From assembly GCF_054482595.1 (NCBI RefSeq), contig NZ_CM137008.1: a DNA stretch of 64,000 bases; one strand, written 5' to 3'. Within the stretch, counting starts at the first letter, position 1. Each line of letters starts with the position of its first letter. A program made the position numbers. Shown here one piece after another: positions 47,301 to 53,300 of this stretch.

Positions 47301-50300
47301 ACACTTATACACTGGGTGCAACGGAATCCCAGGCGCACTATTATTTAGCTTGAACCGTTAATATTTTCCCTCCAGAATATTCTGTAAGATTACTTATTTC
47401 ATTAGCCAAAAGCGCTTTGAACATATTTCGGTCCTGCCCGAAAACAACGCCAGAAAAGAAAGTCCCAAGGTTGCGGTAGCCGCCTACGGTCGGCATACGG
47501 ATAAACAGGTAAGACGTACCCTCGTACGTGCCGGTAAACCAAGCATCATAATCTGTGAGAGATTGGTTATCACAGTGAGCAGCTCTAACTAATTTTGCGC
47601 GGGTAGAGATATTGCTGCCTACTGTATTAAGGTCATACGCACCCGATATAGGATTAAGATCTTCCCCGCTGCGTAATGTATAAATAGTCCCAATGCACCC
47701 TCGTTTCCCATACTGACCACCAACGATACGATAATACGGCCCAGCAGACTGGTCTGGATTCGGCAACGCCATATCCCGACACATAGTGGTACTGAACGTT
47801 GGTATGGTTGCCAGCCCACCAAGATTACCTAATGTAGCGAAAGTTGCAGTTTTCGTGTCGTATGAATTCCTTTGAGGCCACGACGTTTCAAACTTATTGC
47901 TGTACACGATTTCTAACTTAGCACCGTTAGTTAAACGGGCCATCGCGCCATTGAAAGTAGTGGTCGAGCTGGCAATTAGTTGCTTAATACTTACTTTAGC
48001 ATAACCAGATAGGTCAAACATGTAGCTACCTGCAGCCTGCGTTTGATCGTACAGATGTATATTATCTATCTGTAAGTTAGCCCCGGTGCCCTTAATAATC
48101 GTACCGCTGTTCTGACGTGAAGGTTGTTCACAACCTAAAGACGAAATGCTGTACGAGCCTGCGTTAAAAATATACGGAATCCCAGCGCAATCGTCAGCGG
48201 CTAATGGACCAATTTCACAATATGAGCCCGTCAACTCAAAGGCACAGTAGTTTGTTTTAAACGCGTTACATTGGGATACTACGTAGCTTGCCCCCCCATG
48301 TATATGAATACCACCATATATCCCGGTAGCGTCGGAACCTTGGACAACGATTTCGCGGATGGAAACACCAACGAAGGTATTGCCGCCAAAATACATCCCC
48401 CATTTTTGCGCAAGGATAAACAGATCACTAAATTCCTGGTATACGGCGGTATTGGGAGTGTAATACCCGTAACTATCCGTTGTATCGTCCAGGATGCGTA
48501 GTCCACGGACAACATTACCACGTTTACCCTTGTTATAGAAAACAGCGTTAATATCCTGAGTTCCTACCGCCGTTTTGCGAATAATGGATGCACGACCCTC
48601 CCCGACGAATCGGCTACCATTTGGTTGATAGTATTTCTCATTGTAAACATCTTCCAAATCGTAAAGAAGAATAGAGTCCGATATCTCATATTCGCCAGCG
48701 GGCACAAATATAGTTTTTCCCAGTTGCGCGGATACAAGCGATGCTCGATTAAAAGAGAGCGTCCAATCTGGATCTGAATCCAGTTTAAAGTCCAGTACAG
48801 AAATAGTTTCAGAGTTTTTCTGGTGTTGCGTTCGATTTACGGCCCCGTTAAATGGTTGCCGAACAGCTATCTTCGCATCATTAACAATAGTAGGACCATA
48901 GTCTTGCGCCAACTCTGACCTTAGTTGATCAGGGTCATACTTAAGCACATTCGGAAAATAGAACTGCTGTGCACCATATGCATCATAAACAGCCATAGAA
49001 TGGCCTTGCACAGTTACGAACTTGGCAATCTGTCCGTTATATACAGGATACCCGCCAGCGTTAATGATGATTGGCTGTGCAACAGGAACGTGAGAACCGT
49101 CTTCATTCTCTACATAAACCTGAATCTGGTTTTCAGGATTTACCGGGTCAGTGTCAATTTTTCCGATATAAATTTTGCCATTGGCAACCGCTTTAAAAGA
49201 ACGCGCCATAGTGAAGAGTTGCGAAGGCATACTCACTACAACATTGGCATTTATTGAATCTGTCATTTAATTTGCTCCAGATACAAGGAATCGCCGCAGC
49301 ATGGCTACGGTTGATGTTTGTTGCATACCGAAATGGTACGATTGTTGATTTGTACAGTAGGTTTTACGATGCCATTCCACCCATTTGGTGAGGCATTGAT
49401 GATGTACAGCAAATACGATGAGGCGCAGTTCCACTTCGGCATAATGCCATATTTTTTCTTTGCCATTATGCAACATTACTCCCATGAATCAGGTGTTGTA
49501 GTGCTTTAACACCTTCCTCATTGTAGCGGAATGCTTCCACCTGTTTGCTGGAATGCGCAGATTTATCCAGGAAGAACTTCCCGTACTGCTCAGTTTTGAG
49601 GTTGTTTGCGTTAGCAATGCGACCAATCTTGTTGGCCGTTACCCCAAGCTGCTCTGCAACCTCCCCTGCTGAGTAGTAATGCTCTTCTATTGCTGGAAGA
49701 GGTATTGCATTAAAACCAACGATCGGGTTGATTATGCTTGCTGCCGCAGTCTGCTTTGCTTCCGGCGCAAGATTTGGCATCAAATCGAACAGATTGGTAA
49801 CAGCTTCAACCGTCATTTTCAATGTTCGCGCCTGGCGATACTCAACAAGTCCACTAGACGATTTACCGCTTTTAATGTGCGCTTCTTGCATACTTTCAAG
49901 TTGGTCTACAAGTGAGCGGCGAACAGCTTTAGATTCACGAGCAGCCACTCGAAGGGCTTGCTTAATTGACATAACAACTTTTTCAGAAGTTGTCTTGTTT
50001 GATTTTTGAACTACGAAAATTTCGTAGTGCTCACCTTCAAGTTCATCCTTAATGCGTGCAATAAAGTCGTTATTGCGGACTTCTTTTTCCCCGCACTGTC
50101 TACGAGCATGATTGACCATCTCTAACAGGTACTGGCTATCAATGGTTTTATCCGTGACAACGGATCCGATGTTTGCTACATTCTTAAAAGTCATTAGGCA
50201 TTCCTTATGTGGTAGTAAGGGTGTGACATAGGCCGCCAGCAGCACACTGGCGGTTTTCTTTTTGCGCCGTCCGGCGCACCAATCAATGAATCCATTCCTC

Positions 50301-53300
50301 GCCGCGCAGTTTTGCCAGCATTGGCTGAGCGTTCTTTACGACAAAATTGTTGGTATCAAGATTCTTCATTTCACGAAGAAGTGATTTCTTGGTTTCTTCT
50401 GACATGTAGCGAGTCTCATATGCAATATCGTAAATCCTTCCTGAAAGCTCAGAACCAATTTGCTTCATTCCTGGGTAGATGTGTTTGCACATTTGTTGAC
50501 TCTTCTCCATCCACAATTGTAAGTAGCAGAGATTAACCAGTTCTTCGTCAGTAAACTGTTTTGCAATCGGTGAGCATTCTGCCTGCCGATCCAAAATATC
50601 CAGCACCCAGCGGCGGAACTCTTTGGCTACCTGAGTGCGAGCAAACATCGCGATTAGGTGGGCACCGCGTAGTGAGAAAACACGCACTTTTTTGCGATAA
50701 TTTCCTGAGGTACTCACTTCGAGTACCTGAGTCATTCCGGCGCTAAACTCATCGCTATACTTGTTATAAATCATTGTTACTGCACGACTATTTGCGTATT
50801 TAAGTGCAGATGCAATATTAGATGATGTAAACCAAACACCATGCATATCACGGGTGGGCACCAATTCAACTCCGTGGAAGTTATAATCTGATTTTGCTAC
50901 AATATTCATGTTAGTTTCCTTGCATACGGTTACTGACATAGAGGCCCGGTTTGTGTTCACGCACTGCCGGGCTTCACTATTTTTACTGGGCATTAGCTCT
51001 TTCCTCTCTCAGGCTTTTAGCCAGTCGCTGCACAATCGCAGAGTTGATAGAAATTCCATCCATTTCAGCAACACGTCTAATCTCCTCCTTCATTCGCGCT
51101 GGCAAACGAAGCTGGAAACTTTGACTTTTACGACCTGTGTAAAGCACATCTTTCATAAGTAATCCTCCCACAATGATACCAACTTGGTTCTAGAACCAAT
51201 TTAACACCATTTATTTTGATGTCAAGTTGGTGCTATTGTTTAGCGAACATCTTTACGTTGAGGTCATATGAGCAAGTTCCCTAGTCATGAAATGGATAGG
51301 TTCAATATCAGGCTTCCTGCAGGAATGCGGGATGCTATAGCTGAACGAGCCAAACGTAACGGCAGATCAATGAACTCAGAGATTGTTCAGATACTGGAAG
51401 ATGCCTTGAATGCAGAAAATACACTCGGGGAAATAGCAGATAAAATCAACAGCGTCTCGGTTCCGCTAAATGTTGATGCGCTAGTTCAACTTCAAGCCCA
51501 GGTTATCGCCATGCAAAAAGAAATACAGGAAAAGTTCAGAGAGCAGAACGAAAAGTTGAGAGAACTGCTAAACAAAAAAACCACCTGACGGTGGGTTAAT
51601 TTTTGCCTTTTTTGGACCATATTGACTACTCATAAAATGAGATCAATATTTAATCGCCCAATAACGGGTGCATGTTGAGGTATATCATGGCGAAAAAACC
51701 AGGTGAAAACACAGGAAAAAACGGCGGAATATACCAAGAAGTTGGCCCGCGCGGAGGTAAGAAAGACAATTTTGCCACCGTCAAGGACAACGAAAGGCTT
51801 CCGCCAACAACAAAGCCAGGTCATGGCTGGGTATTAGATAAGCGAACTCCAGACAGCAAAAAGTAATAATCAAGCCGGGTCACTCCGGCTTTTTGATATG
51901 TCGCTCGCAGAACTCAACAAGCCTGCTCATTAAGTAGCAGTAAGTCTCGTTGGCTCTTCCTGGTTCAACATCAACGCCGACCCTTGAGCAGATATCGAAT
52001 GCCATGTGAGCGCACTCATGGGCAATAGTAGATAGTTTGCCATTGAACACACCTATCACATGCAAAACACCATTCTCGCTGCTCATTGTATGAGACGCTC
52101 CGTTGGCATCCGAGTCCTGCACGTCCACGCCAAGTTTTTGATGCAGGCGTTGCCATTCTGGAAAGTCTCTGCAAAACACAATTGTACCGCTCTCAAAGAG
52201 CGGAACGAGCATTTTTGGTACGTTTCCAATGTTAACTTTTTTCATGGTATCCTGCTCAAAACTAAGGAGGTTGGTGTGAAGAAAAAATTTGTAAACGTTG
52301 CAAAGTGCGCAATTTTTATATTTTTTATGACCTTTTACGGATTTAGTGCCGGAGAAGGTTTCGATCGTGATGCCAATGCATTCAGTTTCTTTTGTCTGTC
52401 TATAGTGGTCATAATTGTATGGGTGGAATTAAAGCAAACATTGTTTCATGTGCTAGGGAAATAACCATCCATGGCATTTAGTCACTGCTGTGTTGCCTCA
52501 GTGGCAAGCAGCGGTCTGATGGCATTTGCAGCGTTACTTAATGCTCTTTCATAGGCTGGCGTTCCTGCTTTGGTGTTTGCCAGACGTAAGAGCGCATTCC
52601 TGGCCATAGGGCTTTCATAAACCCTCGACATAAGGCCAATCCCTGTTTCCCCAGCCAATAGCGCGCCTCCGGTTTTTAGGTTACCAATAACCCTTACCAA
52701 AGGCGCGAGTGTCATGCCAGTCTTCGTCACAACATTAGCCTCAGATGCTCTTTTGGTAGCATCGAGAATAGATAACATCCCCTCTATCTCTTTTCCGTTC
52801 TTCCCACCAAATACAGTTTTAAACACCTGACCATTTGCTTGTTTTTGCAGCTTGCCAAGCTCGGTCATCATTTTCTGAGGGCTGTCACCTACCTTGTCAG
52901 CTATTTTGCTGATATATGCCGCCCTTAGCATGTCTTTACCTTTTTGATCGAGTTTCCCGTACAATCGAGCTATATCTGACCCATATTGTCCATACACAAT
53001 GGTATTTACAGCCTCGGGAGTTAAATCTCCTTTGTTTAGAACGTTTTTAAGGCGCGTTTGAGTTGCATGTGTTGCCATTTTTGCATAATCAGCTTTTCCC
53101 GCTCTCCATGCTGAAGCATCTTTTGGGCTAAGTCCTTTCGCTATAGATTTACTAAGGCTATTGGTTAGCGAGTTATAGACCCTGTCGACCATTGTTTGCG
53201 ACATTGATGGCAGAACTGTACGATCGCCTTTTACGTCAATGCGGAACTGAGTTCTCAGCTTATCAAGTAACTCAAAGGCATCATCTCCATTTGTTATCTC

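Follow-up and report, generated by a model that had tools for sequence, protein, structure and literature searches.

Gene content of the ant moron

We describe a 64,000-nt stretch of contig NZ_CM137008.1 from NCBI RefSeq assembly GCF_054482595.1 (the whole of this stretch is called the window below), which carries the "ant moron", or immI, slot of a P22-like (Lederbergvirus-type) Escherichia coli prophage. In P22, this slot holds the series mnt - Pant - arc - sar - ant. In the window, arc is followed by two genes on the minus strand, here called ORF1 and ORF2 (open reading frames 1 and 2). A preliminary description had suggested that they might be the two parts of a divided antirepressor, with a Bro-N domain encoded by the first gene and a KilAC-like domain by the second, and had noted two independent antirepressors or a replaced module as alternatives. 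The domain and locus evidence presented here favours this noted alternative: ORF1 and ORF2 are best explained as independent genes, ORF2 being the second in the operon and conserved there. The genes that make up and bound the module are as follows.

47341–49266, minus strand: tailspike gene, the equivalent of P22 gene 9, bounding the ant moron (from the list of open reading frames and annotation)
49466–50194, minus strand: ORF2, 242 aa; N-domain (residues ~14–106) homologous to P1 Ant1/Ant2, helical linker, and C-domain (~140–240) modelled as a MerR/Xis-type winged helix-turn-helix
50283–50909, minus strand: ORF1, 208 aa; putative two-domain antirepressor in the ant position, with Bro-N at residues 23–105 and P22_AR_C at residues 117–184
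50983–51156, minus strand: arc, 57 aa (from translation; Pfam Arc, E 8.3e-12)
51268–51588, plus strand: mnt-like gene for a 106-aa repressor of the Arc (ribbon-helix-helix) family; diverges from the arc operon

Translation from 50909 to 50283 gives 209 codons including the stop (N-terminus MNIVAKSDYNF), and translation from 50194 to 49466 gives 243 (N-terminus MTFKNVANIG), in exact agreement with the two genes that the preliminary description had placed after arc. The ribosome-binding site it had assigned to each of them can also be read in the sequence, with AAGGAA lying 6 nt 5′ of both ATGs on the minus strand (50921–50916 for ORF1 and 50206–50201 for ORF2). The RefSeq annotation of E. coli 55989 holds the same two coding sequences of 208 and 242 aa, and by this annotation and the domain and family matches given below ORF1 and ORF2 are real, conserved genes and not chance reading frames. 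At a query coverage of at least 80%, the exact pair was found in 12 complete E. coli genomes; at the same coverage, ORF2-type DNA was found in 75 of 5,426 such genomes. In the copies that we examined, ORF2 is labelled "hypothetical protein" and stands beside a "P22AR C-terminal domain-containing protein".

The setting is that of P22 immI in several respects. The module occupies the slot between a gene 16 homologue and the tailspike gene (the interval between P22 genes 16 and 9), with homologues of the P22 ejection-protein genes on its upstream side, and relatives annotate the counterpart of 47341–49266 as a phage tailspike or head-binding domain protein. As in P22, an mnt-like gene is divergent (Pfam Arc, E 1.6e-20; PHROG 1287, E 3.3e-47; label in E. 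coli 55989, Arc family DNA-binding protein), arc and then ant lie on the late-operon strand, and ORF1 sits directly 3′ of arc behind a sar-type spacer. Unlike the window and its relatives, P22 has no ORF2, no small ORF coupled to it, and no third Arc-family gene (the last is present in the window's relatives), and sieA is absent here. Villafane et al. recorded ten types of ant moron among sixteen genomes and found that no other part of P22-like late operons varies as much (PMC2629481), and a gene set different from that of P22 is therefore to be expected. The arrangement is an ordinary mosaic variant of immI with an uncharacterised second gene, and it is not rare.

Domain content of ORF1

The Bro-N domain that the preliminary description had read in the first ORF is borne out by Pfam, which places Bro-N (PF02498) at residues 23–105 (E 9.5e-10; 39.4 bits against a cut-off of 25.6). 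ORF1 also has a C-terminal domain of its own, P22_AR_C (PF10548), at residues 117–184 (E 2.7e-14; 53.4 bits against a cut-off of 22.4). With Bro-N and P22_AR_C both present, ORF1 is already complete. The protein matches PHROG 245, "anti-repressor Ant", at E 7.3e-53, as well as several further anti-repressor Ant PHROGs. ORF1 is like P22 Ant in having P22_AR_C, and unlike it in its length (208 vs. 300 aa) and in its N-terminus, which is Bro-N and in which the Pfam search did not find P22_AR_N (PF10547). The BLAST alignment of the two proteins follows the same division, with the C-domain alone aligning, at 29% identity to P22 Ant residues 206–274.

By homology, ORF1 is the Ant of this phage. The P22_AR_C-type Ant of phi24B has been shown to speed derepression at induction (PMC3064807), and from this experimental role together with the P22_AR_C homology we infer that ORF1 binds and inactivates a C2/CI-type prophage repressor. 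A search of NCBIfam returned no family for ORF1 or for ORF2, and searches of ORF1, ORF2 and an ORF2 profile against PDB chains gave no significant match, with a weak alignment to the helix-turn-helix of CAP at E 0.09.

Compared with the Ant of Salmonella phage SPN3UB (locus L004, 3552–4274), ORF1 is 100% identical from about residue 97 to the end, and its Bro-N part is about half identical; in sequence terms the two proteins form a clean domain-swap mosaic. Among the IMG/VR loci described below, a second Bro-N allele, 55% identical, is fused to the same ORF1-type C-domain. The sharpness of the mosaic and this second allele point to a recombination hotspot at the domain boundary.

Domain content and fold of ORF2

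ORF2 has no match to any Pfam model, including ANT/KilAC (PF03374) at E ≤ 1. It is nevertheless a member of a large family. Residues 1–242 match positions 1–264 of 264 of PHROG 1726, "anti-repressor", at E 9.4e-101, and 2099 homologues were found in the protein database at E ≤ 1e-3. Among the best 120 of these 2099, all but two are named "hypothetical protein", and no Pfam domain is recorded for them.

The N-domain of ORF2 is related to the antirepressors of P1 and P7. It is 59% identical to P1 Ant1 residues 112–206 (100 columns, E 2e-32), which is a region common to Ant1 and Ant2, and tblastn of ORF2 matches ant1/ant2 of both phages. Beyond this region, the proteins part: P1 Ant1 continues into Pfam ANT/KilAC at residues 234–336, and ORF2 (aligned over its residues 14–106) continues into a winged-helix domain unrelated by sequence. 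The two ORF2 domains occur separately. In HMMER searches, the best 150 representatives at 50% identity included 12 that aligned at full length, 36 that aligned over the N-domain only (~10–130) and 95 over the C-domain only (~75–242), and by this pattern ORF2 is a fusion of two separately mobile domains. Elsewhere, the ORF2-type C-domain is found C-terminal to Bro-N, Rha, ORF6N or KilA-N domains, and AntA and P22_AR_N are also present among members of the homologue set. ORF2 thus belongs, like ORF1, to the Bro domain-shuffling network (PMC10111431), in which both are typical two-domain combinations; neither domain of ORF2 is caught by a current Pfam model. In treating both proteins as kin of antirepressors, the preliminary description was right.

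A confident AlphaFold model of ORF2 (59-sequence alignment; predicted local distance difference test score, pLDDT, 87.5) has an alpha/beta N-domain, long linker helices, and a C-domain of a helix-turn-helix and a beta-hairpin, the predicted fold of which is a MerR/Xis-type DNA-binding winged helix. Foldseek comparison with viral models (BFVD) retrieved antirepressor, KilA, KilAC-domain, Rha and BRO proteins, with E-values down to 4e-10 and 10–26% identity. The whole-protein matches included an "Antirepressor protein KilAC domain" (E 1.2e-8, 17% identity) and a "KilAC domain protein" (E 3.3e-5); the structure searches brought up no solved structure of KilAC.

The identification of the second ORF as KilAC-like therefore has to be divided. 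A comparison alignment of KilAC was built from P1 Ant and seven homologues, and hhalign of the ORF2 C-domain against it gave a probability of 0.4%, with the helix-turn-helix alone aligned. Because of this value we reject ORF2 as a KilAC protein, in line with the missing Pfam ANT match. Of the domain assignments first proposed, Bro-N in ORF1 stands and KilA-C/ANT in ORF2 falls. As an analogy the comparison holds: ORF2 is KilAC-like in position, its C-domain lying where KilAC lies in P1 Ant, and perhaps in fold, given the resemblance of the models.

Comparison with related loci

We compared 82 loci with ORF2 homologues that are 69–100% identical (80 from IMG/VR, one from Klebsiella and one from Proteus). 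In 74 of them, a gene with an ORF1-like N- or C-domain lies directly upstream of the ORF2 homologue and ends ~90 nt before it. The upstream ant alleles vary, and include two Bro-N alleles with the ORF1 C-domain, a Bro-N allele with a P22-type C-terminus, and a P22_AR_N type. In one locus (L035), ORF2 is preceded by a 300-aa P22-type Ant, of which the first 20 residues are those of P22 Ant and the C-terminus is nearly the same; loci related to L035 likewise have an intact P22-type Ant of 300 aa before ORF2. Each gene is also found without the other: Klebsiella phage phiKp_30 has an ORF2-type gene and no ORF1-type gene, and in SPN3UB the next gene after an ORF1-type Ant encodes an unrelated ORF6N protein. 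Further contexts of ORF2 are a nin region and, in Stx2a phages, a position near int. Duplication was considered as an origin of the pair and set aside, as BLAST found no similarity between ORF1 and ORF2, nor between ORF2 and the second gene of SPN3UB (gp22).

The order mnt | arc - ant - ORF2 is repeated in siphovirus-type prophages, in the Klebsiella locus and in the Proteus locus. In the former (L008, 2592–5052) and in Proteus vulgaris (L010/L011, 2074–4229), the series reads mnt | arc - Bro-N Ant - ORF2 homologue - small genes, placed in a tail-gene cluster between a DUF6246 gene and the tape-measure gene. From this we conclude that the immI cassette moves as a unit between unrelated virion modules, always into late operons. 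SPN3UB is comparable to the window and to these prophages in having mnt | arc - ant - second Bro-network gene - small gene in a tail-gene cluster; it differs from the window in that its second gene is the ORF6N protein dissimilar to ORF2, and in that the host phage is a siphovirus and not a P22-like podovirus.

In the Stx2a phages, an ORF2 homologue (62–67% identical) is close to an Ant of the AntA+P22_AR_C kind. Unlike in the window, these genes are in the early-left region near int, and arc, mnt and the sar2-type upstream hairpin described below are missing, so that the same protein pair is under different control. In Stx2a phage F451 (L006, 3992–6205), the ORF2 homologue, a pseudogenised antirepressor N-terminal fragment and the AntA+P22_AR_C Ant adjoin near int. 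A more distant homologue of ORF2 (45% identical, 270 aa) is found on a metagenome contig (L009, 252–1219), where it overlaps by 4 nt with a preceding 52-aa gene. This 52-aa gene has a weak ribbon-helix-helix (HicB/Arc-like) match, which would put the ORF2 homologue in the "ant" position after an arc-like gene.

Predicted promoter and antisense RNAs

Upstream of arc and in the two spacers of the operon, we identified the following candidate regulatory elements.

50154–50266, plus strand: sar2, candidate antisense unit with a promoter-like site, a predicted start at ~50189 and an intrinsic terminator (promoter and terminator scan)
50910–50988, plus strand: sar1, predicted sar-like antisense RNA between arc and ORF1, with a sequence that would pair with the ORF1 ribosome-binding site
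51172–51211: likely operator, an imperfect palindrome of 20+20 nt (core TTGGTTCTAGAACCAA), the inverted repeat overlapping the candidate Pant
51172–51225, minus strand: candidate Pant promoter, TTGACA (51225–51220), 16-nt spacer and TAAATT (51203–51198), TG-extended, with 10 of 12 consensus matches

By analogy with the Pant/Oarc/Omnt layout of P22, and from the consensus matches, the promoter and the palindrome likely serve as Pant and its operator. The arc-ORF1 spacer aligns with the arc-ant spacer of P22, and sar1 is predicted to fold into two hairpins as P22 sar does (minimum free energy −33.3 kcal/mol, z −6.2, vs. −29.5, z −5.3, for P22 sar), with the terminator beside the arc stop codon. 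The terminator stem is kept with covariation across 12 sequences that include P22 sar.

The sar1 spacer is also open in frame with ORF1 (50910–50993), which gives a 236-aa ORF from an ATG at 50993. Some annotations start ant within the sar spacer, for example that of SPN3UB Ant at 240 aa. The "KNSEA..." peptide of such ant extensions reflects conservation of the RNA and not of a protein, and gene callers are prone to extend ant in this way.

A second sar-like cis-antisense RNA, sar2, is predicted over the start of ORF2. Its promoter-like site is inside ORF2 codons 5–14 (GTGACA at 50154–50159, a 17-nt spacer, and TACATT at 50177–50182, TG-extended), and its terminator at 50230–50266 is a 10-bp GC-rich hairpin (stem 50230–50256) followed by the T-run TTTTCTTTTT. 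The predicted RNA of ~78 nt would span the ORF2 ATG and AAGGAA. The terminator is conserved on the antisense strand: a hairpin with T-run of this type is found in 34 of 38 distinct ORF2-upstream sequences (the other four are three Stx-type contexts and the locus L089), and RNAalifold gives nine pairs, three with compensatory changes and none broken. Pairs of G and U at the base of the stem become A-C mismatches on the sense strand, so these pairs are strand-specific. The −35 (GTGACA) is identical in the Klebsiella and Proteus loci, and the −10 keeps TAnAnT despite a varying encoded N-terminus.

The sar1 and ORF1-ORF2 spacers have a short "TATGTCA" motif and their layout in common, and we considered whether the second could be a duplicated sar cassette. 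A sar covariance model built from 12 sequences scored 79.6 bits on 50910–50988 and found nothing at 50189–50266 at E ≤ 10 with filters off. Because the model misses sar2, we discard this origin and call sar2 analogous, but not demonstrably homologous, to sar.

Proposed function of the module

We consider it probable that the locus is an immI-type secondary-immunity ("ant moron") module of the P22-like prophage with two independent, complete antirepressor-type genes in one operon. The operon would read, from Pant, through arc, ORF1, ORF2 and a small ORF. In the lysogen, the Mnt-like protein would hold Pant off. Upon infection or derepression, Pant would transcribe arc, ORF1, ORF2 and the small ORF, and Arc would then shut Pant down again by autoregulation. 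The antisense RNA sar1, if transcribed, would limit translation of ORF1 by way of its ribosome-binding site, and the ORF1 made would inactivate the prophage repressor. In the same manner sar2, running from the promoter inside the 5′ end of ORF2 to the terminator in the ORF1-ORF2 spacer, would limit translation of ORF2. ORF2 is a fixed companion of ant, whichever allele of it a phage carries. The most likely role of ORF2 is that of another antirepressor or anti-immunity factor, with a specificity unlike that of ORF1; this is suggested by its homology to P1 Ant, by the regularity with which it is placed in ant operons, and by its predicted small-RNA gating.

The comparison with immI of P1 and P7 (c4-icd-ant, with the C4 antisense RNA) extends to control, since small-RNA regulation of translation is annotated for P1 and predicted for ORF2. 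There are differences: no icd or c4 homologues are present here, and whereas RNA of the C4 type is processed, the one predicted for ORF2 is a plain cis-antisense unit. An antirepressor is also controlled by an antisense RNA in N15 (CA RNA, as cited in PMC10732415).

A further reading, which we put forward tentatively and which is on balance unlikely, is that ORF2 and sar2 form a self-contained second anti-immunity cassette that has not been described before, made of two Bro-network domains and able to dock behind any ant. Because its N-domain is P1-Ant-like, ORF2 may target another class of repressor than ORF1 does, for example the repressors of co-resident heteroimmune prophages or of P1-type plasmid prophages. 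If so, one prophage would hold two independently throttled keys for cross-induction.

Several observations weigh against a module of two antirepressors as we propose it. The "anti-repressor" labels of PHROGs and GenBank are annotation transfers, our literature search found no experimental work on the ORF1 or ORF2 proteins, and the prophage c2 repressor gene is located outside the window, so no repressor target can be named. For the small RNAs, an Rfam scan of 46500–53000 at E ≤ 1 returned no family and no sar. The −35 of sar2 lies within conserved coding sequence (VVTDKT), the fold of the whole RNA has a z-score of only −1.84, and in the consensus fold the terminator hairpin is supported and the 5′ hairpin is not; sar2 is thus a candidate drawn from consensus scans and conservation. 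Lastly, the MerR/Xis-type C-domain of ORF2 fits a DNA-binding regulator as well as it does a protein-binding antirepressor, and a deletion, described below, is a mark of ongoing decay at the 3′ end of this copy.

The point about the C-domain is the basis of the alternative that survives best, namely that ORF2 is a DNA-binding transcription regulator of the Rha/Roi/KilA kind, with its winged helix acting on phage or host promoters at the lytic switch. We take this to be a serious possibility, albeit an unlikely one, because the N-domain is homologous to an experimentally characterised P1 antirepressor, the gene is constantly found in ant operons under arc/mnt control, and antisense-RNA control is typical of antirepressor genes (P22 sar, P1 C4, N15 CA RNA).

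It is improbable that ORF1 and ORF2 make up a heteromeric antirepressor in which both are needed, in the way of P1 Ant1/Ant2. The pairing of ant and ORF2 in 74 of 82 loci and three genera would suit such a complex, and so would the P1 record, which gives an Ant1/Ant2/C1 complex, with the ORF2 N-domain being the region common to Ant1 and Ant2. However, the ant partner varies freely between Bro-N variants, the P22_AR_N type and others as ORF2 stays 69–100% identical, which one would hardly expect of two proteins that meet at a specific interface. In phiKp_30, moreover, ORF2 occurs by itself, and on the metagenome contig it comes directly after the arc-like gene; P22 Ant, for its part, is known to work alone (introduction of PMC3064807).

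The deletion leads to another alternative, that the module in the window is a remnant in decay, with no function left. Alignment with E. coli 55989 (99.2% identity) shows the window to be without 426 bp at the junction 49436|49437. All 12 E. coli genomes with a query coverage of 80% or more, 55989 among them, have the segment. It contains nearly all of a third, convergent Arc-family gene with its terminator (84 aa when intact; Pfam Arc, E 3.8e-15), and most of a 72–73-aa gene that overlaps ORF2 by TAATG, which couples the two in translation, and whose intact 72-aa protein matches PHROG 4977 (function unknown) at E 1e-52. What is left of the two genes is as follows.

49305–49466, minus strand: remnant of the truncated 72–73-aa gene (PHROG 4977), with the first 10 codons native and the rest reading through over the deletion
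49399–49437, plus strand: remnant of the third Arc-family gene, its first ~13 codons, ending at the deletion junction (from alignment with E. coli 55989)

The 53-aa ORF at 49305–49466 (past its first 10 codons) and a 63-aa ORF are fusion artefacts of the deletion. Besides these losses, a gtr region beside the tailspike gene also appears truncated. On the other hand, nothing is missing from both spacers or from mnt, arc, ORF1 and ORF2, all of which are 99–100% identical to other genomes and IMG/VR contigs, and arc, ORF1 and ORF2 have no frameshifts or premature stops, and we therefore give a non-functional module little chance.

The remaining alternative, that an ancestral Ant came apart into two genes, one for Bro-N and one for KilAC, whose products cooperate as its two halves, draws on the Bro-N of ORF1, on the adjacent, co-oriented genes and on the KilAC-like position of the ORF2 C-domain, and is very improbable, as each ORF has an N- and a C-terminal domain of its own, ORF2 does not match KilAC, the two proteins share no sequence similarity, each occurs without the other, and ORF2 follows varied complete ant genes, including the 300-aa P22-type Ant, an order that is incompatible with a split.

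The preferred reading, with two antirepressor-type genes, corrects a tempting misreading of the locus as a split gene, and gives a recurrent form of P22 immI that carries two complete genes of this type. Should ORF2 prove to be a second antirepressor under an antisense brake of its own, the small-RNA-gated anti-immunity systems known so far (P22 sar, P1 C4, N15 CA) would gain a further case, with a bearing on prophage cross-talk and induction in polylysogens. Our literature search returned nothing specific to ORF2, and in the literature that we searched we found no description of how ORF2 is built from two domains, of its constant place after differing ant alleles, or of the candidate sar2. 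The locus also exposes gaps in annotation, namely two ORF2 domains without a Pfam model and two predicted small RNAs.

Flanking regions

Between mnt and the gene 16 homologue (51630–52470) there are two small conserved genes, at 51672–51866 (plus strand, PHROG 3202) and 51880–52245 (minus strand, PHROG 1365), separated by a bidirectional terminator-like hairpin at 51872–51891. On the other side of the module, the sizes and order of the ORFs in 41189–47340 fit bioD-bioC-bioF-bioB, bioA and then ybhB (46227–46703; labelled "kinase inhibitor" in relatives), after which the prophage tailspike gene is next. With ybhB directly beside the tailspike gene, the prophage is apparently at the classic lambda attachment site, ybhB/ybhC. 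In other genomes, the DNA that matches the 640-bp gap at 46704–47340 is labelled as bactoprenol glucosyl transferase or GtrA-family protein, an indication that a gtr cluster for O-antigen conversion has been truncated at this end of the prophage.

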